A DNA stretch of 43,451 bases from a virus (lineage: Duplodnaviria; Caudoviricetes): positions 1-43,451 of the IMG/VR virus record IMGVR_UViG_3300048849_000035. The stretch is one strand, 5' to 3'. The notes beneath the pieces were generated by a model. It saw only the letters and a program-made list of their open reading frames with translations, did not search any database and was not told the DNA's origin. Positions 6,496 to 37,546 of the stretch are shown piece after piece (the stretch's first letter is position 1; each line of letters opens with the position of its first letter). The translations under genes and the position numbers were made by a program.

Positions 6496-7677
6496 ATCTC
6501 TCTGGCTCGCGTCGATATCACCACCCTGGGCGCCAAGCCCGGCCTGACTACCGATATCGGCCCCATCATCCAGCAGGTTCTTGACAGCGGCAAGTCGCCC
6601 TTCATCCCCGCTGGCGACTGGCGCCTCGGCTCCACGGTCGCATTCCGCTGCTCCAGCCAGCGCATCTACGGCGCAGGAAGCGGCCTCGGCGGCGGCACCG
6701 TGGTGCTGCTCAACCCGGCGGCCCCGTACGCCTCCAACATCACCATGATCGGCTCCTGGGGCACCTTCGGGGACGTCGGCGTGGAGGACATCCAGTTCCG
6801 CAACCCACGCACGGGCGCGGTGGACGGCAACGGCCATCCGATCTGGGCGCACCAAGGCGTCGTGATGAACTTTGAAGGCCCCCTGCATGCGCCGCAGATG
6901 ACCTTCTACGTCTCCAACGTCTACATGTGGGAGTGCTGGAACGGCATCCGCGCCGCGCACTTCAACTCGTCCGAGATCCGCAACGTCACCATGCAGGCGA
7001 TGGCGGGCGACTGGGGCATCTATGCCTACGGCGCCAGCGAGGCGGGACGCTGTGACCAGCTGAAGCTGTCCAACATCAACTACAGCGCCAACGACACGGC
7101 CCGCCTCTACAACCGGGGCACGGGCTACTGGATCGACGGCTTCGTCCACACCATCCAGTTCAACCGCGTCGTGGCGGTCACGCCCTACATCGGCTGGCAG
7201 TTCACCAACTCGCCCGGCCTCCCGGCGGGGCAGCAGCCCAACTTCCTGATCGGTGACGATCTGGAGGTGGACTTCCCGAAGTACCACGCGATCTACGCCA
7301 CCCATCTGGATGGCTTCTTCGTCACCAACCTCTACCTGCATGGCTCCCAGCAGGGCAGCGGCTTGGTGGTGGCCAACCCGAACATCGACATGGTCAAGCG
7401 CATCCGCGTCACGCAGGCCAAGATCACCGACCACGCGGGCGACAACGTGCGCCTGCTCTGCGACGATGCCGAGTTCCATTCGGTGGAAGCCACCGGCTGG
7501 ACGACTGGCGTGGCGGTCCTCGCCGGGACGCAACGCTTCTTCGCCGTGGGCGGAGAGTACGGCGGGCGCCGTGGCGTCAGCGCTCCCTGGGGCGTCTGGC
7601 GTGAGAACCCCGCCACCTGGGTGAGCCTCACCGCCGCCAAGTTGGACGGCCACCTGGGCGCCCACAACATCACCTGA
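6496..7677 (+). CDS. Pectate-lyase-like beta-helix protein (putative depolymerase); proposed ATC start
   Basis: Frame is open upstream of ORF-track start 6700 and encodes VDITTLGAKPG..TDIGPIIQQVLDSGKSPFIPAGDW, a typical beta-helix N-cap; AAGGA 6482-6486 then ATC 6496. Confidence 0.7.
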   Translation: MSLARVDITTLGAKPGLTTDIGPIIQQVLDSGKSPFIPAGDWRLGSTVAFRCSSQRIYGAGSGLGGGTVVLLNPAAPYASNITMIGSWGTFGDVGVEDIQFRNPRTGAVDGNGHPIWAHQGVVMNFEGPLHAPQMTFYVSNVYMWECWNGIRAAHFNSSEIRNVTMQAMAGDWGIYAYGASEAGRCDQLKLSNINYSANDTARLYNRGTGYWIDGFVHTIQFNRVVAVTPYIGWQFTNSPGLPAGQQPNFLIGDDLEVDFPKYHAIYATHLDGFFVTNLYLHGSQQGSGLVVANPNIDMVKRIRVTQAKITDHAGDNVRLLCDDAEFHSVEATGWTTGVAVLAGTQRFFAVGGEYGGRRGVSAPWGVWRENPATWVSLTAAKLDGHLGAHNIT

Positions 7678-7680
7678 CCG

Positions 7681-7703
7681 CCGGTTAGGTTGCACCAGTT
7701 GAG
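7681..7703 (+). promoter_or_regulatory. Phage RNAP promoter
   Basis: GGTTAGGTTGCACCAGTTGAG, identical to the array consensus; intergenic. Confidence 0.8.
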
Positions 7704-7724
7704 GAGCACGTAGCTCCCACCCTC

Positions 7725-7753
7725 AGCCTCCCAGGTTCGCCTGGGGGGCTTTT
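7725..7753 (+). terminator. Intrinsic terminator-like hairpin
   Basis: AGCCTCCCAGG-TTCG-CCTGGGGGGCT followed by a short T run. Confidence 0.6.
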
Positions 7754-7786
7754 CCTGTTTCCCCTTCCTCACACCGGAGATCCCTC

Positions 7787-8041
7787 ATGGCCCGTCGTAA
7801 CGGTCTGTCCCAGCTTGCCTTCCTGCGCCGCCATCTGGCCCAGGGCAACACGATCACCCGCCTCCAGGGCATGCACTACGGCATCGCCAACCTCACCGCC
7901 CGCATCGCTGACCTCCGCAACGAGGGCTGGCAGGTGGACTGCGAGTGGCGCCAGGACGCCGAGGGCGCCGAGTATGGCGTGTTCTCGCTGACCGCAAGCG
8001 AGCGCCCGATCATGCTCCGCGAGATCGCCCAGGCGGCCTGA
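7787..8041 (+). CDS. Small helix-turn-helix protein
   Basis: HLAQGNTITRLQG....IANLTARIADLRNEG pattern of phage HTH_39-like proteins; GGAGA SD. Confidence 0.8.
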   Translation: MARRNGLSQLAFLRRHLAQGNTITRLQGMHYGIANLTARIADLRNEGWQVDCEWRQDAEGAEYGVFSLTASERPIMLREIAQAA

Positions 8042-8049
8042 AGGTCACC

Positions 8050-8223
8050 GTGGAGGAAGACTTCGAGACCACGCTGTCAGTCGGCAGCGCGGTGGGTTTG
8101 GGTGTCGGCTCCGGTCGCCGCCCTCCCCGTCCCGAGTTCTGGATCGGCTTCCACGTCGCGGCTCCCGGCCCCTCCCGAGAGGACGGCTATGCGCCACCTA
8201 AGGCGCCCCGGAAGCGGCGTTGA
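8050..8223 (+). CDS. Hypothetical protein, 57 aa
   Basis: GTG start after GAAGG; stop overlaps the primase TTG start. Confidence 0.5.
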   Translation: MEEDFETTLSVGSAVGLGVGSGRRPPRPEFWIGFHVAAPGPSREDGYAPPKAPRKRR

Positions 8224-9872
8224 AGGACCACCAGAACTCCTCCTTCGTCTGCCATGAACCCTGCCCGAAGTGCGGCTCCAGCGATGCGCTGGCCCGCTAC
8301 TCGGACGGCCATGGCTACTGCTGGTCCTGCCGGGCCTACGAGGCCCCGAGCGCCGACGCCACACCGAACAATCGAAAGGCTACCAAACGCATGGCTGGGG
8401 ATCTGATCCCTATGGGCGATGTGGCGCCGCTGCTCGCCCGGAAGATCACCGAAGAGACAGCCGCCAAGTGGCGCTACACGCGCTCCACCTTCAAGGACAA
8501 GACCGTTCAGGTCGCCAACTACTTCGACGACGAGGGCACCCTGGTGGCGCAGAAGCTGCGCTTCAAGACCGCCCCCGGCGAGAAGAAGGACATGACCACC
8601 CGAGGCGACCTCAAGGCCGCCGGTCTCTACGGCAAGTGGCTGTGGCGGGACCGGGGCAAGATGATCGTCATCACCGAGGGTGAGATCGACGCGCTCTCCG
8701 TCTCCCAGGTCCAGGCCAACAAGTGGCCCGTGGTGTCCGTCCCGAACGGCGCCCAGGGCGCGGCCAAGTCCATCTCGGAGAACCTCGAATGGCTCCTGGG
8801 CTTCGAGACGATCATCCTGATGCTGGACAACGACGAGCACGGCAACGCCGCCGTCAAGGAGTGCGCTCCGCTGTTCCCGCCGGGCCGCGTCAAGATCGCC
8901 CGGCTGCCCCTCAAGGACGCCAACGACATGCTCAAGGCGGGCCGTGGGGCGGAGATCGTAGACGCGATCTGGGGCGCCAAGGTGTGGCGACCGGACGGCA
9001 TCGTGCGGGTCTCGGATATCAAGGCGGATGCCCTGATGCCGATCCAGCGCGGCCTCCCCTGGTTCCTGCCGAAGATGACCGAGTGGACCTACGGCCGCCG
9101 CTATGGCGAGGCCTATGCCCTCGGCGCTGGCACGGGTGTCGGCAAGACCGAACTCTTCACCCACCAGATCGAATACGACATCAACACCCTGAAGCAGCCC
9201 GTCGCCCTGTTCTTCCTTGAGCAGGAGCCGAAGGAGACGCTTCTGCGGGTCGCCGGGAAGTTCAAGGGGAAGCCCTTCCACATCCCCGATGAAGGCTGGA
9301 CGCAGGAGGAACTGGCGGAGGCTCTCGACGAGCTTGAGAAGACCGACCGGCTGATCCTCTACAACCACTTCGGCTCCATCGACTGGGACGAGATCCGCGA
9401 CCGGATGCGCTTCCTGCGCCACTCCGAGAACGTCCGTCTCTTCTATCTCGACCACCTTACCGCCCTGGCAGCGCACGACCCCGAGAACGAGCGCACGCTG
9501 CTGGAGAAGGTGATGGGCGAGATCGGCTCGCTGGTGAAGGAGCTGGGCATCGTCCTGCACTTCATCTCCCACCTGACCACCCCCGAGGGCAAGAGCCACG
9601 AGGAGGGTGGCCGCGTCACGATCCGCCAGTTCAAGGGCGCCCGCGCCATCGGGTTCTGGAGCCACTTCATGTTTGGCCTGGAGCGCGACCAGCAGGCGGA
9701 CAGCCCTGAGGCCCGCGCCACCACCATCCTGCGGTGCCTGAAGGATCGCTACACGGGCCGCTCAACCGGCCTCACCGCCGCCCTGCGATACAACCGAGAC
9801 GCCTGTCGCCTGGAGGAAGCGCCCGATGACGGCTGCCCATTCCCCTCCGCAGACGACGACTGTCCCTTCTGA
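8220..9872 (+). CDS. Primase-helicase (gp4-like)
   Basis: Zn finger CPKC..CWSC, TOPRIM EGEID/DND, Walker A GAGTGVGKT, LDHLT; TTG start. Confidence 0.97.
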   Translation: MKDHQNSSFVCHEPCPKCGSSDALARYSDGHGYCWSCRAYEAPSADATPNNRKATKRMAGDLIPMGDVAPLLARKITEETAAKWRYTRSTFKDKTVQVANYFDDEGTLVAQKLRFKTAPGEKKDMTTRGDLKAAGLYGKWLWRDRGKMIVITEGEIDALSVSQVQANKWPVVSVPNGAQGAAKSISENLEWLLGFETIILMLDNDEHGNAAVKECAPLFPPGRVKIARLPLKDANDMLKAGRGAEIVDAIWGAKVWRPDGIVRVSDIKADALMPIQRGLPWFLPKMTEWTYGRRYGEAYALGAGTGVGKTELFTHQIEYDINTLKQPVALFFLEQEPKETLLRVAGKFKGKPFHIPDEGWTQEELAEALDELEKTDRLILYNHFGSIDWDEIRDRMRFLRHSENVRLFYLDHLTALAAHDPENERTLLEKVMGEIGSLVKELGIVLHFISHLTTPEGKSHEEGGRVTIRQFKGARAIGFWSHFMFGLERDQQADSPEARATTILRCLKDRYTGRSTGLTAALRYNRDACRLEEAPDDGCPFPSADDDCPF

Positions 9873-9882
9873 GGAGACATCC

Positions 9883-10017
9883 TTGCTGGACCTCGCCCTC
9901 TATCTCGCCGCCTGCGCGGCCTTCTTCACCGGCCACTTCTGGACCGGCCTCGCCTTCCTGACCCTCGGCACGCTCGCCTCCGGGGTCTCCATCGTGCTGA
10001 CCTGGGAGCGCGGCTGA
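9883..10017 (+). CDS. Small membrane protein, 44 aa
   Basis: GAGGAG SD then TTG; two hydrophobic stretches. Confidence 0.6.
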   Translation: MLDLALYLAACAAFFTGHFWTGLAFLTLGTLASGVSIVLTWERG

Positions 10018-10018
10018 A

Positions 10019-10543: not shown

Positions 10544-10544
10544 G

Positions 10545-10760
10545 ATGCTGGAGACTTTGCGACAAGCGTTCGCCATCTACGCTCTGGTCCCCCTGGCGTT
10601 CCTGCTGGTTGGCGTATTCCTGGCCCTCCCCTTCGTGCTGATCCTGGGTGTCCCCCTGTCAGCCGTGGCGGCTATCGCGGGGTTCATGGGCCTCGTCATC
10701 GGGCACGCCGCTACGCTGGTCTACGTCATTGCCGTGGGCTTCCACGCGGTGTCCCAGTGA
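10545..10760 (+). CDS. Membrane protein, 71 aa
   Basis: Almost wholly hydrophobic; GAGGA SD. Confidence 0.7.
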   Translation: MLETLRQAFAIYALVPLAFLLVGVFLALPFVLILGVPLSAVAAIAGFMGLVIGHAATLVYVIAVGFHAVSQ

Positions 10761-11179: not shown

Positions 11180-11182
11180 CCC

Positions 11183-11386
11183 TTGATCACAACCGCCATT
11201 GACGTCCGCGACGGTGACGTCGTCATCCGCACCCCAGGGTCTGACGGGTTCACCCCGCTGATGCGGAAGGAACACCAGAGCAGCCTCGCTCACGTCACCC
11301 AGGCCATCCGCATCGCCTACTCCCAGGGCCGCGAGGATGCCACCAAGCAGGTCCAGCTGACCCTGCGGGGCGCCCTAGGCCTGTGA
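11183..11386 (+). CDS. Hypothetical protein, 67 aa
   Basis: GGAGG SD then TTG. Confidence 0.65.
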   Translation: MITTAIDVRDGDVVIRTPGSDGFTPLMRKEHQSSLAHVTQAIRIAYSQGREDATKQVQLTLRGALGL

Positions 11387-11417
11387 CCGAAACCCTCCGC
11401 TAAAGGAGCCTTCCCGC

Positions 11418-13262
11418 ATCTCTCTCCGCCGCCTCGTCTTCGACATCGAGACGAACGGGCTGCTGCCGGGGGTCTCAACCCTCCACACCCTGGTCATCCG
11501 CGACATCGACCGAGGCGAAGCGTGGAGTTGCTGTGACCAGCCCGGCTACCTGCCCCTGGACAAAGGCTTGGAGATCCTCCGCGAGGCGGACCTCCTCATC
11601 GGCCACAACATCATCAAGTACGACCTCCCGGTCCTCAAGCTGCTCCGGGGATGGCTGCCGAAACCCGGCGCCCAGGTCTACGACACCCTCATCGCGGCCA
11701 CCCTGGCTTGGCCTGGGGACCGCCTGAAGTTCGCTGACGCGAAGCTGGTCAAGCGCGCCCAGCTGCCCGCCAAGCTCCTCGGCCGATACAGCCTGGAGAG
11801 CTTCGGCTACCGCCTCCGGTGCCTCAAGGGCGAATACAAGGGCGGCTGGGAGGCCTGGAACCAAGACATGCAGGACTACGCCGATCAAGACGGCGTGGTC
11901 ACCGAGAAGCTGTTCGAGGTTCTCCAGAAGAAAGAGATCCCCCAGGTCGCCTTCGACTTGGAGCAGCAAGTCGCCGCCATCATTTCCGATCAGGAAGTTC
12001 ATGGCGTCTACTTCGACGTCCGCGCTGCGGAGAAGCTCTACGCTGTCCTCTCGGCGGAGCGTGCGGATCTCACGGGTGTCCTTCAGGAGACCTTCCTGCC
12101 CCGCGTCATTCGCGGCGAGGAGGTGGTCCCGGTGCGCGGCGACAAGCGCCTGGGCTACGTCAAGGGCGCCGCCTTCACCCGCGTGAAGATCAAGACCTTC
12201 AACCCCGGCTCCCGCGAACAGTGCGTATGGCACCTGAAGCGGCTGGGGTGGGAACCCGACACCTTCACCAAGGCGGGCGCCCCGAAGCTCGACGACGCGA
12301 TCCTCTCGGATCTGCCCTATCCCGAGGCCAAGCCGCTGGCCCGGTACTTCCTGCTCTCCAAGCTGCTGGGGATGCTGGGCGACGGAGACAATGCGTGGCT
12401 CCGCTCCGTCACCGCCCTGGGCAAGATCCACGGCGAGGTCAACACCAACGCAGCTGTCACCGGCCGCGCCACGCACCGCGAGCCGAACCTCGCCCAGGTG
12501 CCGAAGGTCAAGAAGAACAAGGACGGCTCCATCGCCCTCATGGCGGCGGGCAAGTACGGCTTCGAGTGCCGGTCCCTGTTCATCCAGCCGCCGATGCCTG
12601 GATACACCATGGTGGGTGCCGACTGCTCCGGGCTGGAGCTTCGGGTCTTCGCCCACTATTTGGCCCCACTGGACGGTGGGAACTATGTCCGCGTCGTCAC
12701 CGAAGGCGACGTTCACACGACGAACCAGCTGGCCGCTGGTCTCCCCAACCGCGACAACGCCAAGACCTTCATCTACGCCCTGATCTACGGGGCCGGTGAC
12801 GCCAAACTTGGCTCCATCGTGGGCAAGGGCAAGGCCGCTGGTGCCAAGCTCCGCAAGGCGTTCCTCGAAGCCATCCCCGGCATGAAGAGGCTGGTCGAGC
12901 TAGTCGCCAAGAAGGCCACCCAGCGCGGCTTCCTTGTCGGCCTGGACGGCCGGAAGCTCTACGTCCGCAAGGCGCACGCCGCCCTGAACCTCCTCTTCCA
13001 ATCCGCTGGCGCGCTGATTTGCAAGCAATGGATGGTCGAGGTGCGGAAGGCCGCCGCCGCCGCCGGGCTGACCGCCGGGGAAGACTTTATCCAAGTCCTT
13101 TGGGTCCATGACGAAATCCAAGTTTACGTCAAGGACGAACATGTCGATCTGTTCAAACGCATCGCTGTAGATGCCACAGCCGCCGCTGGCGACTTCTTCA
13201 AGATCCGCTGCCCCCTCACCGGGGAAGCCAAGGCGGGTAGCTCCTGGGCCGAGACGCACTGA
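11418..13262 (+). CDS. Family A DNA polymerase (gp5-like); proposed ATC start
   Basis: Exo I motif LVFDIETNGLL lies upstream of ORF-track start 11568; in-frame TAG at 11376; AAGGAG 11403-11408 then ATC 11418. Motifs DCSGLELR, KTFIYALIYG, VHDE, WAETH. Confidence 0.95.
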   Translation: MSLRRLVFDIETNGLLPGVSTLHTLVIRDIDRGEAWSCCDQPGYLPLDKGLEILREADLLIGHNIIKYDLPVLKLLRGWLPKPGAQVYDTLIAATLAWPGDRLKFADAKLVKRAQLPAKLLGRYSLESFGYRLRCLKGEYKGGWEAWNQDMQDYADQDGVVTEKLFEVLQKKEIPQVAFDLEQQVAAIISDQEVHGVYFDVRAAEKLYAVLSAERADLTGVLQETFLPRVIRGEEVVPVRGDKRLGYVKGAAFTRVKIKTFNPGSREQCVWHLKRLGWEPDTFTKAGAPKLDDAILSDLPYPEAKPLARYFLLSKLLGMLGDGDNAWLRSVTALGKIHGEVNTNAAVTGRATHREPNLAQVPKVKKNKDGSIALMAAGKYGFECRSLFIQPPMPGYTMVGADCSGLELRVFAHYLAPLDGGNYVRVVTEGDVHTTNQLAAGLPNRDNAKTFIYALIYGAGDAKLGSIVGKGKAAGAKLRKAFLEAIPGMKRLVELVAKKATQRGFLVGLDGRKLYVRKAHAALNLLFQSAGALICKQWMVEVRKAAAAAGLTAGEDFIQVLWVHDEIQVYVKDEHVDLFKRIAVDATAAAGDFFKIRCPLTGEAKAGSSWAETH

Positions 13263-13629
13263 GCAGGGGGAGCAAGACTTCCTCCGCTGGTGCGCGGGCT
13301 ACTTCGACGGGGAGGGCTGCGTGACGTGGGGTGGTGGGCTTCAGGTCCACATCACCAACACGCACCTGCCCACCCTGGAGATCATCCAAGAGCGTCTTGG
13401 GGGCCGCATCTACCGCCCCACCAAATCCGACAACCCAAGGTTCCGCCCCTGCCATCGGCTGGTGTGGACCGGCGCCAACGCCGAGCGCGTTCTCGCCACC
13501 CTCGCTCCCCTGCTCCGCGAGAAGCGGGACCAAGCCTTCCTCGCCCTCCAGGCGCGGCGGCTGGTGAAGGCGGAGCGCGAGCCAATCCTGGCGCAACTCA
13601 AAGCCCTGAAGAAGGCCATCCACCCATGA
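13171..13629 (+). CDS. Free-standing single-motif LAGLIDADG-like homing endonuclease (start uncertain)
   Basis: WCAGYFDGEGCV motif, then HITNTHLPTLEIIQERLGGRI and LAPLLREKRDQA. Confidence 0.75.
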   Translation: MPQPPLATSSRSAAPSPGKPRRVAPGPRRTEQGEQDFLRWCAGYFDGEGCVTWGGGLQVHITNTHLPTLEIIQERLGGRIYRPTKSDNPRFRPCHRLVWTGANAERVLATLAPLLREKRDQAFLALQARRLVKAEREPILAQLKALKKAIHP

Positions 13630-15365: not shown

Positions 15366-15376
15366 AGGAACACGCC

Positions 15377-17118: not shown

Positions 17119-17121
17119 GAC

Positions 17122-18021
17122 TTGAGCCTGAAGATCGAAGCTCCCGCCGCCGCCGCCCCGCAGGCTGCCACCACCACCACCACCGCTGCCCCCGCGCAGG
17201 TCCAGGCGCCCGCCGCCGATCCGCAGCCGGGCACCCCGGAATACGATGCGGCGATGATCGCCCGTGGCGCTGGGGTGCAAATCCGCGGCGTCCAGCCGGG
17301 CACCCCGCCCACCGAGGCGGCCACCCAGGAGGCCCCGGAGCGCCCCGAGTGGCTGCCCGAGAAGTTCTCCAACCCCGAGGCCCTGGCCAAGGCGTACAAG
17401 GAGCTTGAGGCGAAGCTGGGCGCTCCCAAGGAGGCCGCCCCGGCTGCCACCCCGGAGACCCCTGCTGCGGGCACCGCCGAGGCCGCCGTGGCCAATGCGG
17501 GCCTGGACATGTCCACCCTCTCGGCAGAGTTCGCCCAGACGGGCAGCCTGTCCGAGGACAGCTACACCAAGCTGGAGAAGGCGGGCATCCCGCGCGCCAT
17601 GGTGGACAGCTACATCGACGGTCAGCTGGCCGTGGCGGAGCGTCAGGCGCAGGAAGCCCTGGCCACCGTGGGCGGCAAGGAAGCCTACACCCAGATGACC
17701 GCCTGGGCGCAGCAGGCCTTCTCCGCCGAGGAGACCGCCGCCTACAACCGTATGGTCAACTCCGGCGACCCCTCGGTCGTGAAGATGGCCGTGGCCAGCC
17801 TGAAGGCGCGCTACACCGCCGAGCGTGGCTCCGCGCCGCAGCTGGTGCGCGGTGACCGTGCCGAGGCCCCTGGCGGTGCGGGCTTCCGCTCCACCCAGGA
17901 GATGATGGCCGCGATGTCTGACAGCCGGTACGGCCGCGATCCGGCCTACACCCGCGACGTCGAGCGCCGCGCCACCGCCCTCAGCAGCCTCTCGGGCATC
18001 TCCGTCCGCGTCGTCCGCTGA
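17122..18021 (+). CDS. Capsid scaffolding protein (gp9-like)
   Basis: RPEWLPEKF, LAKAYKELE, VGGKEAY, AMSDSRYGRDPAY; TTG start. Confidence 0.93.
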   Translation: MSLKIEAPAAAAPQAATTTTTAAPAQVQAPAADPQPGTPEYDAAMIARGAGVQIRGVQPGTPPTEAATQEAPERPEWLPEKFSNPEALAKAYKELEAKLGAPKEAAPAATPETPAAGTAEAAVANAGLDMSTLSAEFAQTGSLSEDSYTKLEKAGIPRAMVDSYIDGQLAVAERQAQEALATVGGKEAYTQMTAWAQQAFSAEETAAYNRMVNSGDPSVVKMAVASLKARYTAERGSAPQLVRGDRAEAPGGAGFRSTQEMMAAMSDSRYGRDPAYTRDVERRATALSSLSGISVRVVR

Positions 18022-19353: not shown

Positions 19354-19394
19354 GGGTGGCCCTTAGCTTCGGCTACGGGTCACCCTTTTTTTTT
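19354..19394 (+). terminator. T-phi-like terminator
   Basis: GGGTGGCCC-TTAGC-TTCG-GCTAC-GGGTCACCC followed by T9, right after the capsid gene. Confidence 0.92.
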
Positions 19395-19404: not shown

Positions 19405-19665
19405 ATGCCTTTGAACCCCGTCAACTACTCCTCCGGGCCGTCCGGTGACGCCTTCGCCGTCGCCCCTTCCAACACCGCGAGCTATGCGGGTGGGGTCTCG
19501 GCGCGCGCCCTCTACGTGGGCACCGCTGGCGACGTCTCCCTGGTGACCGCTGGCGGCACCACGGTGCTGTTCAAGAACGTCCCGGCTGGCTCCTGGCTGC
19601 CCGTCGTGTCCTCTCGGGTGAACCTCACGGGCACCACGGCGGGCGCTCTGGTGGGCCTCCGCTGA
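19405..19665 (+). CDS. Head spike base protein (RcGTA Rcc01079-like)
   Basis: AFAVAPS..RALYVGTAGDV..GTTVLFKNVPAG.WLPV..RV..TGTTA..LVGL, recalled pattern of this family. Confidence 0.8.
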   Translation: MPLNPVNYSSGPSGDAFAVAPSNTASYAGGVSARALYVGTAGDVSLVTAGGTTVLFKNVPAGSWLPVVSSRVNLTGTTAGALVGLR

Positions 19666-19669
19666 TCCC

Positions 19670-20911
19670 ATGATCGGCCTGGGCCTGTCCCTCCTGGGCG
19701 GCCTGAGGGGCGGCCCGAGTGTCCTCAGCTTCGTCTCTGGCGGATACCTCCACCCCTCCGTCGCCCTGACCCGCGCCTCTCCTGGCACCGGCTTCAGCAC
19801 CAGCGGCTCCCTGATCTCCTACGAGGCCAACCTCCCGCGCTTCACCGGGGAGACCCAGGGGCTGCTGGTGGAAGGCGCGCGGACCAACTCCGCCATCAAC
19901 CCGACCGGCACAGGTGCTGGCGTCTACGCGACCGGCTGGTCCTCGATCTCCACGATCAGCGGGATCAACCGAGGCGCCGTGGAAAGCGGCACCGACGAGT
20001 ACGGGGCCTTCTTCGCGATGCGGTTCTCCGGGGCCGCGTCGGCTGATGGCAGCGCCCGCACCGGCTTCGTGGACACCAACACGGTGCCCGCCGCGCTGTC
20101 GCAGATCTGGACCTCCAGTGTCGTGGCGCGGATTGTCAGCGGCACCGCCACGGGCGTGCGCTTCGGCGCCAACCTCATCGAGCGGAATGCGGGCAACGCG
20201 GTACGGTTCAACTACGGCGCCACGGTCCCGGCGACGACCACGCCCGTCCGCCCCTTCTGCACCGTGCCCCTGGCCGCCTCCACCGTGAACAACGTCACGG
20301 GCGAGCTTGCCGTCTCCTTCATCGGGGGCGTGTCGGTGGACTTCGTGATGCGGGTCTACCACGCGCAGATGGAGCTGGGGCCGTTCATGTCCTCGCCCAT
20401 CCTGCCCCCGCCCGGCACCCTCGCCGCCTCCAGCCGCGCCGTGGATGTCCCGACGTGCCTCCTGACCGCCGAGCAGGCGCAGCAGGGGACGCTGGTGGGC
20501 ACCTTCATGATCCCCCAGGCGAACACCGGGGTGGCCCAAGGCCTCGCCGTCCTCAGTTCCGGGGCGTCGGTGTCCAGCCGCATGTTCATGGAGAACACGG
20601 CGGGCCTCAGCACGCTACGCCTCGGGCGCGTCATGAGCGGCACCACGACCTACTCGCCCGTCGCTGGAGAGTATGTGCCAGGTATCCCGTTCAAGGCGGC
20701 CATCTCCTGGGACATCGCAGGCACCTCCATGGCGGTCTCGGGTGGCGCCCCGGTGTCCCTCTCGGGGGGCATCCCGGTCGTGAACCAGCTGATCATCGGG
20801 AACACCAACCCCTCGTCCCTGGGCTTCCCGCTCTGCGGGCAGGTGGACCGCCTCGACTTCTACCCGACGCGCCTTTCCGACGCCCAGCTGCGGAGCCTGA
20901 CCGCACCCTAA
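19670..20911 (+). CDS. Head spike fiber (Rcc01080-like anchor), putative carbohydrate-binding
   Basis: N-terminal MIGLGLSL peptide, LTRAS, GLLVEGARTN, C-terminal lectin-like ..FYPTRLSDAQLRSLT. Confidence 0.7.
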   Translation: MIGLGLSLLGGLRGGPSVLSFVSGGYLHPSVALTRASPGTGFSTSGSLISYEANLPRFTGETQGLLVEGARTNSAINPTGTGAGVYATGWSSISTISGINRGAVESGTDEYGAFFAMRFSGAASADGSARTGFVDTNTVPAALSQIWTSSVVARIVSGTATGVRFGANLIERNAGNAVRFNYGATVPATTTPVRPFCTVPLAASTVNNVTGELAVSFIGGVSVDFVMRVYHAQMELGPFMSSPILPPPGTLAASSRAVDVPTCLLTAEQAQQGTLVGTFMIPQANTGVAQGLAVLSSGASVSSRMFMENTAGLSTLRLGRVMSGTTTYSPVAGEYVPGIPFKAAISWDIAGTSMAVSGGAPVSLSGGIPVVNQLIIGNTNPSSLGFPLCGQVDRLDFYPTRLSDAQLRSLTAP

Positions 20912-20933: not shown

Positions 20934-21506
20934 CTGCTCACCCTGACCACCGAGTTGGAGGCCGTTAACGCCCTCCTGGCGTCCATCGGGGAGGCCCCTG
21001 TGGCTTCCCTGGAGGGCCTCTTCAACGACGCCCGGCTGGCCCTCGACACCCTGCGCGACACCTCGCGGCTGGTGCAGTCCATGGGCTGGCACTTCAACAC
21101 CGACACCGACGTCCTGCTGACCCCGCTGGACACCGCCGAGATCGTCCTGCCCGCCAACTGCGTGCGGGTGGACATCGACCCCCGGCGGGAGCGGCGCCAG
21201 ATCACCCAGCGCGGGAGCAAGCTCTACGACAAGGTCGAGCGGAGCTTCGCCTTCTCAGCCCCGGTGCGGGTGAGCATGGTGACCCTACTGACCTGGGACG
21301 AGCTTCCCGAGCCAGTGCGCCAGTACGTCAAGGCCCGCGCCCTGAGCCGGTTCCAGAACCGCACCTTGGGCGACCCCGGACTGACGAACTTCTCCGCTGC
21401 CGACGAGGCCGAGGCCCGCGCGGCCCTCAAGGGCTTCGAGGCGGACACGGGGAACCACAACATGCTCACAGGCAGCTGGGACGTCTTCCGCATCATCAAC
21501 CGCTAA
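20934..21506 (+). CDS. Tail tubular protein A (gp11-like); proposed CTG start
   Basis: TTELEAVNALLASIGEAPV, VQSMGWHFNT, WDELPE; AAGGAG 20922-20927 then CTG 20934. Confidence 0.92.
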   Translation: MLTLTTELEAVNALLASIGEAPVASLEGLFNDARLALDTLRDTSRLVQSMGWHFNTDTDVLLTPLDTAEIVLPANCVRVDIDPRRERRQITQRGSKLYDKVERSFAFSAPVRVSMVTLLTWDELPEPVRQYVKARALSRFQNRTLGDPGLTNFSAADEAEARAALKGFEADTGNHNMLTGSWDVFRIINR

Positions 21507-23876: not shown

Positions 23877-24295
23877 CCCCCGCCACGCTCGCCCACGCCT
23901 CCTGGCTGGGCCAGAACCTCCGCCCCGAGGATGCCGCCGAGTTGCGCGCCTGGGGTCGGACGGATCTCCAAGGTGTCGTCGAGGAGGGCTTCCGGCTCTC
24001 CGAGGAGGCTTTCACGGGCCACCTAGGTGACCGCGTGGTGGCCATGGCTGGCGTCGTGGCGACCCCGATGGGTGGCTGCGTCTGGCTCTTGGGAGCGCCT
24101 GGTTTGGAGCGCCTCGCGGTTCAGTTGCACAAAGAGGCGAAGGCGAAGATCGCCTCCTGGCTGCCCCGCCACGGCCGCCTCTTCAACACCTGCTGGGCAC
24201 CCAACACGGTCCATGTCCGCTGGCTGCGGCGCCTGGGCTTCACCCTTCATCCACCCCAAGGAGACTTCATTGCGTTCGAGATGACCCATGTGTGA
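23849..24295 (+). CDS. Internal virion protein A (gp13-like)
   Basis: LRPEDAAE, VWLLG, LFNT..NTVHVRWLRRLGF; synteny. Confidence 0.85.
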   Translation: MAHSRSAHLTPATLAHASWLGQNLRPEDAAELRAWGRTDLQGVVEEGFRLSEEAFTGHLGDRVVAMAGVVATPMGGCVWLLGAPGLERLAVQLHKEAKAKIASWLPRHGRLFNTCWAPNTVHVRWLRRLGFTLHPPQGDFIAFEMTHV

Positions 24296-24857: not shown

Positions 24858-24866
24858 GGAGCACCC

Positions 24867-27164: not shown

Positions 27165-27176
27165 CCCAAGGAACCC

Positions 27177-30100
27177 ATGTCCGACCCCATCGCTATCCCG
27201 GAGGAGATCACTCCTTCGGGCACCCCTGCGGCTGCCGCCATCGCAGCCAGCCCCACCACCTCCCTCCCCTCCAACCTCGGCGCCGCCCTTCCGACCACCC
27301 AGGCTCCCACCGCAGGTCAGCGAGGGGATGCCGCCAGGGCCGCCTCCGAGAAGGCCCCCGGTCTTCTGGAGGGCCTCGATCTCGCCGTCCAAGACACGCC
27401 CACGGCGACCGTCTGGAACGGCATCTTCGGCGCCCGGCTGGCCCCTGATCCCAACTTCAAGCTGGACGAGCCGACGCTGAAGACCCTCACCGAGGGGCTG
27501 CCTCGGGAAACCTGGGATGCCCTTGGGGCCGCACGGTCCCTGGCTGAGGCGCAGTCCATCCGGGGGCACATCAAGGAGACCCTGGAGCGCCGCGAGAAGC
27601 TGGCCGCCATGGGTGTCACAGGTGCCGCCCTGAACCTCGCCGTCAACATCATCGACCCGACCGCTCTGGTCGCCGGATGGGCTACGGGCGGCGTGGGTGC
27701 GACGGCCAATATGGGCCGCGCTGGGCGTGCCCTGGTGGGCGCCATGGCTGGTGCTGGTGTCGAAGGCGGCCTCGCTGCCTGGACCGCATCCAACGACGCC
27801 ACGGCTTCCACCCGAGACGTGCTGATCGCGGCGGGCCTAGGCGGCATCGCAGGCGGCCTCGGGGGCTTCTTCTCCCGCAGCGGCGGGGCAGCCCAGATGG
27901 ACGCAGCGGACGAAGCTGCCGCGCGCCTCTCCAGCGCCGCCGTCCTCCGCAATCTGGAGGAGGCCGGGGTGCCTCTCTCGCGCACCGGGCAGTCCACCAA
28001 GGCGCACCTGCTGGCCACAACGGCGCAGCTGGAAGCCGAGGGCGCGGAGATGTTTGGCAGCTCCACCGCAGGCGCAGCCCAGCGCCCCGGTGTGACGCCC
28101 CTTAGCCAGGCCGCCGATGATCGCGCCTACGCCGCCGCCGAGCGCCTCGACGGGGCCACTTCGGTGGGCGGTAGGGCGCGCTTCGACATGGTCGGCCAGA
28201 GCCTCCAGAGCGAGCATCCGCTCATCAAGGAAACGGCCATGAACCTGGGCGAGGAGAGCGTCGGCCTGACCAAGGGCGCGACCACCTTCTCCGCCTCGGA
28301 AGATGCCAACCTCACCCACCGGGTGTGGCTCCGCGACATGTATGCGGGCGGCGTCTCGGAGGCCGAGCGCGCCTGGGTCAAGCAGAACGGCACCGGCTGG
28401 GTCTCCAAGAGGGCCGACACCGAGCGGTTCTACGAGGAGGTCAGCCGCGCTGTCCGCCGCCCGCCGGGTGCCTATACCAACGACCCGCACATCAACCGCG
28501 CCGCCGACAAGCTGCGCCAGTCCTTCGCCAAGATCCGCGACGAGGCTGAGGCGGCGGGCGTCCGCGGATTTGACCAGTTCGGTCCCAACGACACCTACCT
28601 GATGCGCGTGTGGCGCCTGGACCGCATCATGGCGGCCCGCGCCCAGTACGGCGAGGCGGCGATCAACCGCATGTTCGCCAATGCCGCCTTGGGTGGCTCC
28701 GCAGGGAACCTCTCGCCGCAGGATGCGCAGCGCCTGGGCAGGGCCTTCCAGCGCGCCCTGGTGTCCCGCTCCGTGGGCGCCGAGGTGGGTGCCACGATCC
28801 AGGGCACCTCTCGGGAAGGCCTGGAGGCCGCCATGCGCGCCACAGGTGTCACCGACGACCTGATCGAGCAGGTGCTGGGGCGGATGGATGACCCCTCTTC
28901 GGGCAACCCGTCCCGCGCCAAGCACCGCGTGTCCTTCGACGAGACGCACGTCGAGCAGACCTTCGCCGCCGATGGCGTGACCCGCGTGGACCTCCGCATG
29001 GAGGACTTCATGGAGAACAACGCCGCCGCCCTGTTCGCCCACTACTCGCGGCAGGTGGCGGGCCTAAGCGCCCTGGCGAAGAAGGGCATCCGCAGCGAGG
29101 CGGACTGGCAGCGGGTCATCAACGACATCCGGCAGACGGCGCCTGAATACTCGCCCAAGCTGGCCGCTAATCAGGCCGACCTCGACAAGGCCATCGACAA
29201 GCTGGAGACCCTTCGCAAGAGCGTCCTGGGCATCCCGCTGTCCCCGAACAGCCGGGCCAACCAGATCCTCCGCGTCCTGCGCGACTTCAACTTCGTCCGC
29301 ATGATGGGGCAGGTGGGCTTCTCGCAGATCGCTGAGTTCGGCGCTGCGGCCAGCCACGTCGGCTTCCGCAACATGCTCTCCTACGTCCCCGAGGCCTTCT
29401 CGGTGATCAAGCGCGCCAAGTCCGGTCGCCTCCCGAACCAGTTCATGGAGGAGATCGAGAGCCACTGGGCGCTGGGCGGAGAGCGGTATCTGGAGCGCAT
29501 GGCGGCCCAGTACGACCGCGAGGACGGCTTCCTGGCCATGGGGCAGGTCTCCAAGGGCCTGAAGCACCTGACCGACATCGTCTCCGACGTCAGCGGCATG
29601 GCGCCCATCACCTCCTTCCAGCGCCGCCTTGCGACCGCTGCGGCGATCAATCGGATGACCAAGATGGCCCAGAAGGGCCGGTGGCCGAACGAGAGCCAGA
29701 TGCGCAGCCTGGGCCTGGACGAGCCGATGATGCGGCGCGTCTTCGCGGAACTGAACACGAATGCCGCGCGGGTGAACGGCGTCTTCGGGCGCAAGGTCAC
29801 CACGCTGGGCTTCGACAACTGGACCGACGTGGAAGCCCGTGAGGCCTTCACCCACGCGGTCTATCGGTGGTCCCGCAAGGCCGTTCAGGAGAACGACATC
29901 GGCAACCTGTCCCAATGGATGACGACCCCGATGGGCCGCATGCTGGGGCAGTTCAAGACCTTCGTCATGGTGGCCCACCAGAAGCAGCTGCTCGCGGGCC
30001 TCTACCACATGGACCAGAAGGTTCTGACCGGCTGGGCCATCGGCATGTTCCTCGGGAGCATGACCTACATCGGCCAGACCAACCTGAACGCCTTCGGCCG

Positions 30101-30491
30101 TGGCGACACCGACAAGCACCTCGACCGCATGCTGACGCCCGAGAAGATCGCCCTGGCGGGCTTCAACCGGCTTGGCGCGGCGGCCCTGGTGCCGACCATG
30201 GTGGACAGCGCCCTCCTGCCCTTCCTGGGCTTCGACGGCCTCTTCACCGACGCCCGCTCCTCTGGCCTGGGGGCGGACATCATCTCGGGCAACCCCACCG
30301 TGCGCATGTTCGCAGACGTCGGCAACGTCGTCGGCGGCGCCGTGCAGACGGTCGTGGACCCCGAATACAAGGCGTCCAAGGCGGACGTCAAAGCCACCTT
30401 CTCGGTCCTCCCTCTCGGGAACGCCATCGGCATTCGGAACATCTCGAACCTGATGGCGGCGGACCTCCCCTACAAATCCACCAACCACTAA
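27177..30491 (+). CDS. Internal virion protein D (gp16-like)
   Basis: 1104 aa before the tail fiber; GRMLGQFKTF motif in the C-terminal part. Confidence 0.8.
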   Translation: MSDPIAIPEEITPSGTPAAAAIAASPTTSLPSNLGAALPTTQAPTAGQRGDAARAASEKAPGLLEGLDLAVQDTPTATVWNGIFGARLAPDPNFKLDEPTLKTLTEGLPRETWDALGAARSLAEAQSIRGHIKETLERREKLAAMGVTGAALNLAVNIIDPTALVAGWATGGVGATANMGRAGRALVGAMAGAGVEGGLAAWTASNDATASTRDVLIAAGLGGIAGGLGGFFSRSGGAAQMDAADEAAARLSSAAVLRNLEEAGVPLSRTGQSTKAHLLATTAQLEAEGAEMFGSSTAGAAQRPGVTPLSQAADDRAYAAAERLDGATSVGGRARFDMVGQSLQSEHPLIKETAMNLGEESVGLTKGATTFSASEDANLTHRVWLRDMYAGGVSEAERAWVKQNGTGWVSKRADTERFYEEVSRAVRRPPGAYTNDPHINRAADKLRQSFAKIRDEAEAAGVRGFDQFGPNDTYLMRVWRLDRIMAARAQYGEAAINRMFANAALGGSAGNLSPQDAQRLGRAFQRALVSRSVGAEVGATIQGTSREGLEAAMRATGVTDDLIEQVLGRMDDPSSGNPSRAKHRVSFDETHVEQTFAADGVTRVDLRMEDFMENNAAALFAHYSRQVAGLSALAKKGIRSEADWQRVINDIRQTAPEYSPKLAANQADLDKAIDKLETLRKSVLGIPLSPNSRANQILRVLRDFNFVRMMGQVGFSQIAEFGAAASHVGFRNMLSYVPEAFSVIKRAKSGRLPNQFMEEIESHWALGGERYLERMAAQYDREDGFLAMGQVSKGLKHLTDIVSDVSGMAPITSFQRRLATAAAINRMTKMAQKGRWPNESQMRSLGLDEPMMRRVFAELNTNAARVNGVFGRKVTTLGFDNWTDVEAREAFTHAVYRWSRKAVQENDIGNLSQWMTTPMGRMLGQFKTFVMVAHQKQLLAGLYHMDQKVLTGWAIGMFLGSMTYIGQTNLNAFGRGDTDKHLDRMLTPEKIALAGFNRLGAAALVPTMVDSALLPFLGFDGLFTDARSSGLGADIISGNPTVRMFADVGNVVGGAVQTVVDPEYKASKADVKATFSVLPLGNAIGIRNISNLMAADLPYKSTNH

Positions 30492-30499
30492 GGAGTCCC

Positions 30500-32704
30500 T
30501 TGCTCAAGCAGACCTACACCGCGAACGGTGAGACCCGGACCTTCACGGTCCCCTTCCCGTTCATCTCGCGTGACCACATTGGGGTTACCGTCAACGAACA
30601 GCCTGCCTCCTTCACCTGGGTGAACGGCGCGACCGTCCAGCTGGCCACCACGCCAGCCGCAGGCGCTCCGGTCAGTGTCACCCGCTCCACCCCTATCGCG
30701 CCCCTGGTGGCCTTCGTGGACGACCAGCTTCAGCGCGCCTCCGACTACAACATGGCCATCCGCCAGGGCCTCTACGTGGCCGAGGAAGCCACCGCTGAGG
30801 CGCAGCGCGTGGACGTGGATGTCTCGTCGTCCCTGCGGCGCCCCGAGAACGAAACCGACGTCCCCATGCTGCTGCCTGTGGCGCCCTCCCGCGCCGGGAA
30901 GCTGCTGGGCTTCGACGGCTCTGGCGCCCCCACGGCGGTCGCGCTGGACACCACGGCTCTCCTCCAGCGCCCCGAAGGCGAGGACAGCGGCTCCATGGTG
31001 CTGCCTCCCAAGGCCTCGCGCTCCGGGAAGCTGCTGGGCTTCGACGGCTCTGGCGCCCCCACGGCGGTCATGGTGGACACCTCGGCGGCCCTGAGGCGCG
31101 CTGAAGGCGACACCGCCGTCTCCATGGTGCTGCCGCCTGCGGAGACCCGCGCCGGTAAGGTGCTGGGCTTCGACGGCTCTGGCTCCCCCACGGCGGTCAC
31201 CCTGGACGCTTCCGGCGCCCCTCTGCCGTCCCCGGACCAGATCAACGTGGTGGCGCCCTATGCCCACACGCAGCAGCGCACCCTGGCGTCCAAGCTCGCG
31301 GACAGCCTCAACGCGGCCGACTTCGGCGTCGTGGGCGACGGCACGACTGACGACACCGATGCCTTCCAGATGGCGGTGTGGACGGCGGCCCAGGTGGGCA
31401 AGGTGCTCCACGTCAACAACGGCCGGTTCCGCTTCACGCGTCCGATCACCTCCTCGCGCGGCGTCCGCATCTGGGGCCAGGGCTGCGAACCCATGGCCTC
31501 CAACCCGAACCCGGTCTCGGACATCGGCAGCGGGACGTGGTTCCACTTCGACCACGCGGGCGAGGGCTTCGTCTTCGGCCATGTGGCCTCCTTCGCCACG
31601 GGCTTCGAGTATGTCGGCATCGGCCACATCCGCAGCCAGCCGTCCCCGCACGACCCCAGCTTCGAGGCCCTCAATTACGGCTTCGACATCGTCCTCAACA
31701 ACACCGAGATCTGGATCGACCGGGTGATCTTCCTGACCTCCTCGCGCGGCATTCAGATGCCCCACGGCGCGGCGGGTCGGCTGCGCATCGGCAGCATCTC
31801 GGGGCAGCCGCTGATCTGCGGGATCGACATCGTCGAGAGCTACGACGTCACCTCGTTCAACCACATCCACTTCTGGCCGATGTGGTCCAACAACCCCATC
31901 GTGCTCTCGTGGATGGCCACCCGCTCGATTGCCATCAAGACGGGCCGCTGCGATGGCCTGGTTGGCACTAACCTCTTCGTCTTCGGCTACCACATCGGTC
32001 ACCAGATCTACGGCATCCCGGCGGGCACCACGCTCCGCGCCCAGATCGTCAACGCCTACTTCGACCTCTGCGTCGTCGGCGTGCAGGTGGCTCCGAGCGT
32101 GGGCACGGGCGGCGCAGGTTCGACCTACGGCGCCATCGTGACCTACACGAACTACGTCTCCTCTGGCCCCGAATGGCACCTTGCCGACTGCGTCGCGGTG
32201 GCGGTGTGGGGCGCTGACTGCGACCTGACCTTCACCAACTTCGAGAGCGTCTTCAGTGGCTACGGCGCCATCCGCAGCCTCGGCAACAACAACCGCATCT
32301 CCCTCACCGGGCGTGTGGCGATCCGCAACTGGGGCCGCGACCGGACGGCCAACTGGCCCGCGCTGGAGGCCTCCTCCGGTGACACCCTGATGGTCCACGG
32401 CGATCTGAGCTTCTTCCCCTCGGCCGCCACGGCGCTCTACTCCGCCTCGGGCAAGATCAGCATCCCCGGCAAGACCGCCTCGGGTGTCGTCGATGTGCCC
32501 TCCGGGCCGGGCCGCACGGTGGGCGTCCACCACGGCCTGGGGCGCGAGCCGAAGATCTCCGAGATCGTGGTGTGGCCCATCGGGCAGTCCGCAGGGTCGG
32601 CTGGCTTCCACGTCCAGAACGTGACCAGCGAGACCTTCGAGATCTACACCTTCGGCACGCTCCAGCAGGCCATGAAGTACGGGTGGAAGGTCACCCTGGC
32701 CTAA
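30500..32704 (+). CDS. Tail fiber/spike (gp17-like anchor plus beta-helix domain)
   Basis: AAGGAG SD then TTG; YTANG..FTVPFPFISRDHI..VTRSTP anchor; ADFGVVGDGTTDDTDAFQ beta-helix N-cap. Confidence 0.92.
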   Translation: MLKQTYTANGETRTFTVPFPFISRDHIGVTVNEQPASFTWVNGATVQLATTPAAGAPVSVTRSTPIAPLVAFVDDQLQRASDYNMAIRQGLYVAEEATAEAQRVDVDVSSSLRRPENETDVPMLLPVAPSRAGKLLGFDGSGAPTAVALDTTALLQRPEGEDSGSMVLPPKASRSGKLLGFDGSGAPTAVMVDTSAALRRAEGDTAVSMVLPPAETRAGKVLGFDGSGSPTAVTLDASGAPLPSPDQINVVAPYAHTQQRTLASKLADSLNAADFGVVGDGTTDDTDAFQMAVWTAAQVGKVLHVNNGRFRFTRPITSSRGVRIWGQGCEPMASNPNPVSDIGSGTWFHFDHAGEGFVFGHVASFATGFEYVGIGHIRSQPSPHDPSFEALNYGFDIVLNNTEIWIDRVIFLTSSRGIQMPHGAAGRLRIGSISGQPLICGIDIVESYDVTSFNHIHFWPMWSNNPIVLSWMATRSIAIKTGRCDGLVGTNLFVFGYHIGHQIYGIPAGTTLRAQIVNAYFDLCVVGVQVAPSVGTGGAGSTYGAIVTYTNYVSSGPEWHLADCVAVAVWGADCDLTFTNFESVFSGYGAIRSLGNNNRISLTGRVAIRNWGRDRTANWPALEASSGDTLMVHGDLSFFPSAATALYSASGKISIPGKTASGVVDVPSGPGRTVGVHHGLGREPKISEIVVWPIGQSAGSAGFHVQNVTSETFEIYTFGTLQQAMKYGWKVTLA
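30830..31215 (+). repeat. Three tandem 129-bp (43-aa) repeats in the tail fiber
   Basis: (L/V)LGFDGSG(A/S)PTAV coded at 30902, 31031, 31160. Confidence 0.9.
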
Positions 32705-32750
32705 CCTGACGCAACCTAGGGAGGCGCCTCAGCGCGTCTCCCGCCCTCCC

Positions 32751-32963
32751 ATGGAAAAGATGGACCCCTTTCAGGCTGACGTCATCGACCGCCTCGCGCG
32801 GATCGAGACGAAGCAGGACACCCTCGTGACGACGCAGCTGCTGCACTCCGCACGCATCGAAGCCCTAGAGGCGTTTCGCAACCGCATCCTTGGTGCGAGC
32901 GTCCTCGCGTCCTCCGCCGCCTCCGCCCTCGTTTCACTTCTGATCGCCCACTTCACCAAGTAA
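32751..32963 (+). CDS. Small coiled-coil plus transmembrane protein (holin/XhlA-like)
   Basis: DRLARIETKQD..RIEALE then a hydrophobic C-terminus; start may be 32760. Confidence 0.65.
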   Translation: MEKMDPFQADVIDRLARIETKQDTLVTTQLLHSARIEALEAFRNRILGASVLASSAASALVSLLIAHFTK

Positions 32964-32975
32964 AGGAGCATCCCG

Positions 32976-33389
32976 ATACTTTCCGCTATTCTTGGCGGGG
33001 TCGTTTCCCTCGTCACCGGCTCCGTTGAGCGGTGGCAGGAGGGGCGAGCCGCCGCCGCCGAGCGTGATGGGAGGATCGCTGAGGCGACCACCCAGGCGCA
33101 GATCGAGGCCCTGAAGAAGGCCCAGGACAGCGAGATCGCCTGGGACCAGCTGGTCGCCGGGCAGATGTCCACCTCCTACAAGGACGAGATCCTCACCTAC
33201 ACCTTCCTGCTGGTCTTCGTGGCGGGCTTCTTCCCGCAGACCCAGGACTACATCGCCCGTGGCTTCGAGGTCATGACGAACGCCCCGGTGTGGTTCCAGA
33301 CCTTCTTCGCGGTCGCTGTGGCCGCCGCCTTCGGCTTCCGCAAGGTCGTCGAGATCATCGTGTCCCGCATCCCCGGCGCCCGCCGGTAA
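32976..33389 (+). CDS. Putative 3TM-type holin; proposed ATA start
   Basis: Open frame LSAILGGVVSLV...EIAWD...SYKDE...PVWFQ...AAFGFR extends upstream of ORF-track start 33165; AAGGAG 32963-32968 then ATA 32976. Confidence 0.7.
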   Translation: MLSAILGGVVSLVTGSVERWQEGRAAAAERDGRIAEATTQAQIEALKKAQDSEIAWDQLVAGQMSTSYKDEILTYTFLLVFVAGFFPQTQDYIARGFEVMTNAPVWFQTFFAVAVAAAFGFRKVVEIIVSRIPGARR

Positions 33390-37544: not shown

Positions 37545-37546
37545 CA

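Follow-up and report, generated by a model that had tools for sequence, protein, structure and literature searches.

Near-cognate start codons behind strong Shine-Dalgarno sequences on core genes of a T7-like prophage: probable fixed translational damping

Four genes of a T7-like prophage are predicted to start at near-cognate codons

We analyzed a 43,451-nucleotide (nt) stretch of DNA (the window), which represents one IMG/VR virus record (IMGVR_UViG_3300048849_000035) and comprises, with short host flanks, the T7-like prophage of a soil bacterium. Four of its genes, which encode a beta-helix protein, a family-A DNA polymerase, tail tube protein A (tail A), and a holin-like membrane protein, are predicted to start at the near-cognate codons ATC, ATC, CTG, and ATA, respectively, each located 6 to 9 nt behind an AAAGGA(G) Shine-Dalgarno (SD) sequence that matches the class-level anti-SD (Table 1). 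We consider it probable that these starts represent fixed translational damping, in which a weak codon would be offset by an SD sequence matched to the host and by abundant transcripts of the phage RNA polymerase, and for which no phage switch would be needed. A preliminary description of this sequence had given the four codons (at 6496, 11418, 20934, and 32976) and their SD spacings correctly, and had read them as a lock that a phage factor, perhaps a kinase encoded at 39649, opens, with static down-tuning as the fallback. The fallback fits our data best, as prophages without the kinase share the habit.

The 57 curated genes in the window start at ATG (42), GTG (6), TTG (5), ATC (2), CTG (1), and ATA (1), and a homology-free detector picked exactly the four near-cognate genes among 53 window genes. 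None of the four has a canonical start in frame ahead of its conserved N-terminus. The first in-frame ATG, GTG, or TTG is a GTG at 6700 in the beta-helix gene, a TTG at 11568 in the DNA polymerase gene, a TTG at 20955 in the tail A gene, and an ATG at 33165 in the holin-like gene, i.e., 68, 50, 7, and 63 codons downstream, respectively. For the polymerase, this codon lies past the VFDIETNG exonuclease-I motif, in agreement with the earlier statement that no canonical start precedes the motif. The case is weakest for tail A, in which the TTG 7 codons on lacks an SD sequence and would lose the conserved TTE, and for the beta-helix gene, which has no ortholog. ATA accounts for only 3 of the 12,652 internal codons of the window genes; therefore, the ATA at 7 nt from AAGGAG is not explained as an internal codon placed there by chance. 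The start regions fold weakly, and no strong SD-blocking hairpin is present.

Both ATC starts read alike, as previously described: ATCTCTCT occurs only twice in the 43 kb, each time at an ATC start, and would encode a Met-Ser-Leu N-terminus that is plausible as an ordinary one. An antisense partner for ATCTCTCT was rejected because the plus strand holds no complement, and repeat slippage restoring an ATG fits the beta-helix site alone and not that of the polymerase.

Two of the original protein labels stand in part. The holin label is retained as holin-like only, based on a match to PHROG 2524, the function of which is unknown; no Pfam or NCBIfam match supports a holin proper. An ESM Atlas feature search (0.97; pectate-lyase-like clusters) suggests that the open reading frame (ORF) at 6496 encodes a beta-helix protein, and a single-sequence structure model was too poor to support this (predicted local distance difference test score of 36). 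This ORF is in the same frame as the amidase gene and lies 3 nt behind the amidase TGA.

Downstream of the DNA polymerase gene, a LAGLIDADG-like endonuclease ORF (13171-13629) lies in the +1 frame, and its sole ATG is 92 nt inside the polymerase gene. The endonuclease ORF after the DNA polymerase gene in the related record G046 (L249) has the same layout, with ATGs 37 to 52 codons upstream. The window ORF may have a fifth odd start or be a frameshift product. At 24258-24290, a TTG frame of four codons lies behind AAGGAG; its stop is two codons short of the gp14-like ATG, with which it shares the frame, and this may be chance inside the gp13-like gene.

The start sites are supported by distant orthologs and lie in intact genes

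The preliminary description had proposed homolog start codons as a check. Distant orthologs do start at these places and have canonical codons there, but queries with tail A, the DNA polymerase, the capsid protein, the integrase, the terminase, and the kinase identified no close relative of the window phage; the nearest identities were 48 to 49% for tail A, ~50% for the DNA polymerase, and ~65% for the terminase. Among these distant relatives, a canonical start coincides with the matching place or precedes it by a short distance in 144/144 loci (64/64 non-redundant) for tail A, 125/129 loci (75/78 non-redundant) for the DNA polymerase, and 6/6 loci for the holin-like protein. The tail A orthologs start 0 to 5 codons ahead of the window CTG and keep the TTE. 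No beta-helix ortholog was found among the collected loci or named phages, and queries with the holin-like and beta-helix proteins returned little or nothing.

That random decay is unlikely and the genes are intact, as originally argued, is supported by two observations. For 4 of 57 starts to be lost by neutral decay, ~31 nonsense changes would be expected in 38 kb of coding sequence, and none was observed, which argues against neutral decay; moreover, the core proteins match PHROG profiles across most of their length. We note that the stored call for tail A comprises 168 amino acids (aa) versus 190 aa from the CTG, and that a canonical call for the polymerase would drop the exonuclease-I motif. 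Because gene callers truncate proteins with near-cognate starts, intact prophages can be misread as defective.

All four start sites were covered by contigs from sequencing run X1 at a depth of 97 to 101, with no differing letter. Sequencing error at the four codons was rejected on this basis, although the ~100× contigs possibly derive from an identical sample. Run X1 consists of Logan contigs and not raw reads, and may be the window's own source sample; therefore, only a consensus error is excluded, and the check that had been advised was made at the level of contigs. The prophage contigs reach a depth of ~100, about half of the host flank's 175 to 238. With the prophage below the host flank, run X1 shows no sign of induction, and a partly lysogenic population would be expected to give half depth. 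At 43100-43451, the majority contigs have a few bases unlike the window at about twofold depth, which suggests a mix of lysogenic and non-lysogenic strains.

Near-cognate starts coincide with an extended SD sequence and phage-polymerase promoters

AAAGGA occurs five times on the plus strand, four times at the near-cognate starts and once ahead of the MarR-like gene. The extra A is present in 1/11 canonical genes led by AAGGA compared to all four near-cognate genes (p=0.004, post hoc). For the host anti-SD, we used the alphaproteobacterial class-level value (PMC10783764), from which the host's own 16S end may differ; AAAGGAGG is the SD sequence of Alphaproteobacteria (PMC10783764, Table 1) and likewise of C. 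crescentus (PMC5303271). In S. aureus, near-cognate starts have extended SD sequences and give ~10 to 30% of AUG output (PMC13009471, in part; here and below, "in part" marks a source cited from a portion of its text). In E. coli, AUA, AUC, AUU, and CUG starts gave 1 to 2% output from a T7 promoter, and an N-terminal Met was shown for AUC (10.1101/063800, in part). All four window codons fall in the best-initiating near-cognate class. Compensation of weak starts by SD sequences is a general trend (PMC5622118, in part).

Start codons also differ by promoter class. The genes assigned to the host polymerase, i.e., the phage RNA polymerase gene and 14 early, regulator, and integrase genes, start at ATG in 15/15 cases versus 27/42 for genes behind phage-polymerase promoters (p=0.006). 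Weak starts are confined to the latter genes. The five TTG genes listed in the preliminary description (8220, 9883, 11183, 17122, and 30500) were confirmed. GGTTAGGTTGCAC, the likely phage-polymerase promoter, has eight copies in all: the four-copy cluster in Table 1 and further ones at 7683, 18022, 24118 (2 mismatches), and 35698.

Weak starts recur in other T7-like prophages

In the related records G048, G050, and G052, the DNA polymerase gene has no canonical start; a CTG lies six bases behind GAGGT, and the records have no kinase match. The polymerase gene of G053 was flagged likewise by a relaxed rule, and that of G047, which likely bears the kinase, also has a CTG start. For the phage lysozyme (PF00959), 13 of the 15 rows compared start at ATA (10), ATC (1), or GTA (2), the remaining two being one broken and one distant sequence. 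The 13 rows represent 9 distinct contexts with 57 to 70% protein identity, and their starts sit behind an SD-like GGAG, GGAAG, or GAG word. Several have an ATG 12 codons downstream, with none such in G016 or L234. The tail-fiber gene starts at ATC or ATA in G016, G034, G040, and G043. The kinase profile, searched against the prophages with near-cognate polymerase, lysozyme, or tail-fiber starts, had no match in the kinase-less clades; G010, G016, G034, and G040 are complete records with no kinase match.

The interchange of weak codons (ATA, ATC, GTA, and CTG) without reversion to ATG is as would be predicted by selection for low initiation, and temperate T7-like phages appear to have reached the weak-start solution repeatedly and on the same gene classes. 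Near-cognate starts are usually seen as one-off curiosities (infC, pcnB, and ccpN). Their recurrence on polymerase, tail, and lysis genes across temperate T7-like clades points to a selected low-dose setting on very abundant transcripts. Near-cognate starts with strong SD sequences are already known; that core genes of temperate T7-like prophages use them repeatedly is apparently new. A literature search, confined largely to openly accessible papers and their main texts, turned up no report of near-cognate starts in T7-like prophages, and none of a kinase that relaxes the choice of start codon.

Several further odd starts were noticed in these records. The start of the HNH-like gene after the DNA polymerase gene overlaps the polymerase stop as CTG-A in many records (G016, G015, G018, G021, G035, and related ones) and as TTG-A in G010 and G034. 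In L161, a prophage in a Mucispirillum metagenome-assembled genome, the amidase gene apparently starts at an ATA that follows GGAGG by six bases. The terminase large subunit of G047 (L252, ~14500) and a small membrane ORF of G046 (stop at 31002) may also have ATC/CTG starts preceded by SD-like words.

The kinase does not predict near-cognate starts

The ORF at 39649 does encode a gp0.7-like kinase, as had been proposed: the kinase motifs are intact, and a 25-member profile of its family of ~190-aa kinases matches T7 gp0.7 (E value of 6e-11). The ORF ends two residues after the DP motif, and the C-terminal shut-off (DNA-binding) domain is absent, as it is in prophage homologs of the T7 kinase (PMC13645617, in part). 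The kinase-operated unlock itself was not supported, as near-cognate starts do not co-occur with the kinase across genomes. In T7, which served as the sole member of the lytic comparison set, the kinase is present, and the 57 starts comprise 51 ATG and 6 GTG, i.e., 0/57 are near-cognate.

For the prophages, 44 records, many of them fragments, were hand-picked by length and closeness, and 43 were oriented and screened with G032 left out. The kinase profile matched 0/44 related records in one search and 4/50 in another, and two more matches were found separately; the kinase of G047 is likely only, with its last 27 residues matched. Using a strict detector, we identified near-cognate starts in 4/53 genes in the window versus 13/1944 elsewhere, and in 2/283 genes in the six kinase-bearing records versus 11/1661 in kinase-less records (p=1.0). 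This detector overlooked real GAGGT-led cases in relatives, and the strict p=0.0008 therefore overstates the window's excess. With the relaxed rule, which made 2 false calls among 28 T7 genes, the fractions were 8/215 and 29/1101 for kinase-bearing and kinase-less records, respectively (p=0.37), and 4/44 and 37/1316 for the window and the rest, respectively (p=0.04). A strand-filtered all-against-all screen was insensitive (1 of the 4 found), and its unfiltered version was discarded because antisense shadow frames swamped it. A link between the kinase and near-cognate polymerase starts, suggested by G047, fell with the CTG starts in the kinase-less G048, G050, and G052. In the kinase comparison, the tail A starts of G046, G058, and G063 are canonical. 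By these counts, near-cognate starts are a trait of the family, with the window at its upper end, and are not predicted by the kinase.

Fixed damping and its alternatives

In the arrangement that we favor, initiation by formylmethionyl-tRNA at ATC, CTG, or ATA would reach from a few per cent up to perhaps 10 to 30% of that at AUG, and the weak codons would be aided by full pairing with the host CCUCCUUU anti-SD and by an open 5' region. Strong phage-polymerase promoters would supply abundant mRNAs; therefore, a small initiated fraction could be sufficient for low-dose products, here a polymerase, a tail part, a lysis protein, and a glycan-acting enzyme. The weak starts may also blunt leaky expression in the lysogen, in which the main control is probably transcriptional. 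Lysogeny in the temperate T7-like group has been proposed to be held at transcription by a MarR-like repressor (PMC10134795, in part), and transcription of the four genes is expected to be shut off in the lysogen in any case. As related prophages share the habit without the proposed kinase, the starts likely just keep output low.

Several observations weigh against fixed damping. By computed SD pairing, three of the near-cognate sites rank only 9th to 11th of 57, and the beta-helix site is outside the top 20; SD spacing is longer at near-cognate starts, if marginally so (p=0.06); and in G046, AAAGGA lies ahead of ATG starts. The window is the richest record under both detection rules and does bear the kinase. 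Moreover, we found no explanation for why the two ATC starts share the ATCTCTCT context, and conservation of the four sites could not be shown because no relative exceeds ~50% (tail A) to 65% (terminase) identity. The dose of tail A is a further difficulty. Tail A would be needed at ~3% of the capsid level, based on T7 stoichiometry; its gene follows a T-phi-like terminator, and the stretch between 18022 and 24118 contains no promoter motif. Initiation at E. coli-type rates of 1 to 2% may fall short of this, so that initiation here may be more permissive than that of E. coli; the tail A dose would be met at rates closer to those of S. aureus or in a lenient host. Because of this tension, host leniency and a phage-triggered unlock stay candidates.

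If the host ribosomes were constitutively lenient, through IF3/IF1 or the 16S tail, start codons would drift, and the four sites would be near-neutral rather than dampers. This would ease the tail A dose problem and suit a window load that is the highest of 44 records. It is unlikely, however, given that the same prophage's host-polymerase genes all keep ATG, as does host cysE, and that other clades keep near-cognate starts fixed on the same classes of genes. An unlock on induction would also remove the tail A tension. Here, the genes would be near-untranslatable in the lysogen until an early factor relaxed start selection; this factor might be the gp0.7-like kinase, with IF3 or the 30S subunit as its target. 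The kinase gene lies in the early region, starts at ATG, and encodes intact motifs, the early genes all start at ATG, and the likely kinase-bearing G047 has its polymerase at CTG; the T7 kinase reportedly phosphorylates initiation factors, to judge from the title of a cited reference. We nevertheless regard such an unlock as very unlikely: T7 has no such starts despite its kinase, neither detection rule separated kinase-bearing from kinase-less records, three records of the kinase comparison are canonical at tail A, and complete kinase-less records retain near-cognate starts. In addition, the T7 kinase (T7K) is described as promiscuous, dispensable, and anti-defense, with IF3 and start codons unmentioned in the main text (PMC13645617, in part), and the proposed control of lysogeny is transcriptional, as noted above. 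The broader idea of a second, translational lysogeny switch, in which AAAGGA-context starts gate the polymerase, tail tube, lysis, and depolymerase genes and an early factor weakens IF3 scrutiny, is likewise highly doubtful; the factor may be the gp0.7-like kinase, which lacks the shut-off domain, or an early ORF of unassigned function. If true, it would mean that a phage reprograms start-codon fidelity.

The lack of induction signs in run X1, with the prophage contigs below the host flank, and the lack of close relatives that would show circulation are in agreement with domestication, in which start-codon mutations silence toxic genes and disable the prophage so that the four genes are effectively off. 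We give this little credence, as neutral decay would have brought ~31 nonsense changes, of which none is seen; all four codons are among the near-cognate ones that initiate best, and the rare AAAGGA precedes every one of them; the integrase, repressor, att cores, and promoters are intact; and the same trait is conserved in other clades. The proteins could also be made by other routes. The amidase and beta-helix ORFs are in frame, one TGA and one codon apart, and could be joined by read-through; a frameshift from the pre-polymerase ORF could provide the polymerase; and the Pfam match of tail A begins at the downstream TTG codon. All four genes, however, have a good SD sequence at initiation distance, the tail A orthologs start 0 to 5 codons before the CTG and keep the TTE that a TTG start loses, and the holin-like gene would be left unexplained, so that these routes are very improbable.

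Comparison with known systems

The fixed damping proposed here resembles S. aureus infC (AUA), cvfC1 (AUU), ccpN (AUA), and citZ (AUA), in which a weak codon likewise lies behind an SD sequence matching more of the 16S tail (PMC13009471, in part). Output there is reduced and not abolished, as is predicted for the window genes; the window differs in having four such genes in one 43-kb prophage, phage-polymerase transcripts, and an alphaproteobacterial host. In E. coli, infC and pcnB start at AUU and are policed by IF3 (10.1101/063800, in part; PMC5499595), so that a near-cognate codon limits synthesis; in the window, by contrast, no feedback loop is evident, and replication, tail, and lysis genes carry the codons ATC, CTG, and ATA. 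Compensation of GUG and UUG also pairs a weaker start codon with a stronger SD sequence (PMC5622118, in part); in the window, this would extend to ATC, CTG, and ATA, and appears selected rather than tolerated.

The window prophage shares with the temperate Autographiviridae LUZ100, Pasto, and HTVC019P its gene order, single-subunit RNA polymerase, MarR-like regulator, integrase, and a tRNA-Leu beside the integrase gene; the term "start codon" is absent from that paper (PMC10134795, in part). The window RNA polymerase is only 32 to 35% identical to those of named phages, and the window prophage adds the gp0.7-like kinase. T7 gp0.7 is likewise an early-region kinase with DxHxxN and DP motifs; the window kinase differs in ending at DP with no C-terminal shut-off domain and in having an N-terminal extension, and the published role of gp0.7 is broad anti-defense and not start-codon control (PMC13645617, in part).

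Organization of the prophage and its host flanks

From the left, the window contains the host cysE 5' end, a tRNA-Leu 5' half, the RNA polymerase gene (676), replication genes, head and tail genes, the terminase, the early genes (37081-40797), and the genes for a MarR-like regulator and a tyrosine integrase; at the right end, these are followed by an intact tRNA-Leu(CAA) and by the 3' half of the host tRNA that was split (Table 1). Based on gene order, polymerase, MarR-like regulator, integrase, and tRNA site, all of which are as expected, this is a temperate T7-like Autographiviridae prophage. The cysE matches suggest a Roseomonas-like, alphaproteobacterial host. A scan with the cysE fragment found 5 distant loci among 599 candidates and none in viral contigs. 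The right host flank (43100-43451) presumably encodes a small multidrug resistance (SMR-type) membrane protein.

Table 1. Coordinates of features in the window
Feature	Position	Strand	Remarks
Host cysE 5' end	1..283	-	Best named matches Roseomonas/Pseudoroseomonas/Teichococcus (Acetobacteraceae); NCBIfam serine O-acetyltransferase
attL: 5' half of split host tRNA-Leu gene	433..472	+	11-nt core at its end, repeated at 462 and 43045
Single-subunit phage RNA polymerase	676..3414	+	ATG start
Likely phage-polymerase promoter GGTTAGGTTGCAC	3473..3686	+	Four copies
Pectate-lyase-like beta-helix protein (putative), 393 aa	6481..7677	+	AAAGGA SD and ATC start at 6496
Primase-helicase	8220..9872	+	TTG start; start overlaps upstream stop
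Small membrane ORF	9883..10017	+	TTG start behind GAGGAG
Small ORF ahead of DNA polymerase	11183..11386	+	TTG start behind GGAGG
Family-A DNA polymerase, 614 aa	11402..13262	+	AAAGGAG SD and ATC start at 11418
Scaffold protein	17122..18021	+	TTG start
T-phi-like terminator	19354..19394	+	Stem of 9 bp and T9 tail; lies after the major capsid gene and ahead of tail tube A
Tail tube protein A (gp11-like), 190 aa	20921..21506	+	AAAGGAG SD and CTG start at 20934
Tail fiber/spike	30500..32704	+	TTG start behind TAAGGAG
Holin-like membrane protein (PHROG 2524), 137 aa	32962..33389	+	AAAGGAG SD and ATA start at 32976
gp0.7-like protein kinase	39649..40593	+	ATG start; Gly loop, Lys, DxHxxN, and DP motifs
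MarR-like repressor	41437..41795	+	ATG start; fifth and only other AAAGGA
Tyrosine integrase	41806..42822	+	
Intact phage-borne tRNA-Leu(CAA) and attR	42938..43103	+	tRNA at 42938-43024; attR with host tRNA-Leu 3' half at 43045-43103

Integration split the host tRNA-Leu(CAA) near the anticodon loop (433-472 and 43045-43103), and the complete tRNA-Leu(CAA) beside attR (42938-43024), which differs in sequence, apparently replaces it. A search of the window for Rfam RNAs and riboswitches found only the tRNA. Two features are unusual for T7 gene order, namely the location of the beta-helix gene (6496-7677) within the replication block and the presence of two tail-like genes (19405-20911) between capsid and tail tube A. 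Two similar purine/pyrimidine palindromes of the TCTCCC..GGGAGA type (481-506 and 3412-3440) flank the RNA polymerase gene and are candidate repressor sites, processing sites, or terminators. Finally, an imperfect GC-rich repeat array (36300-36680) lies between the last promoter and the early region, at the expected terminal-repeat junction.

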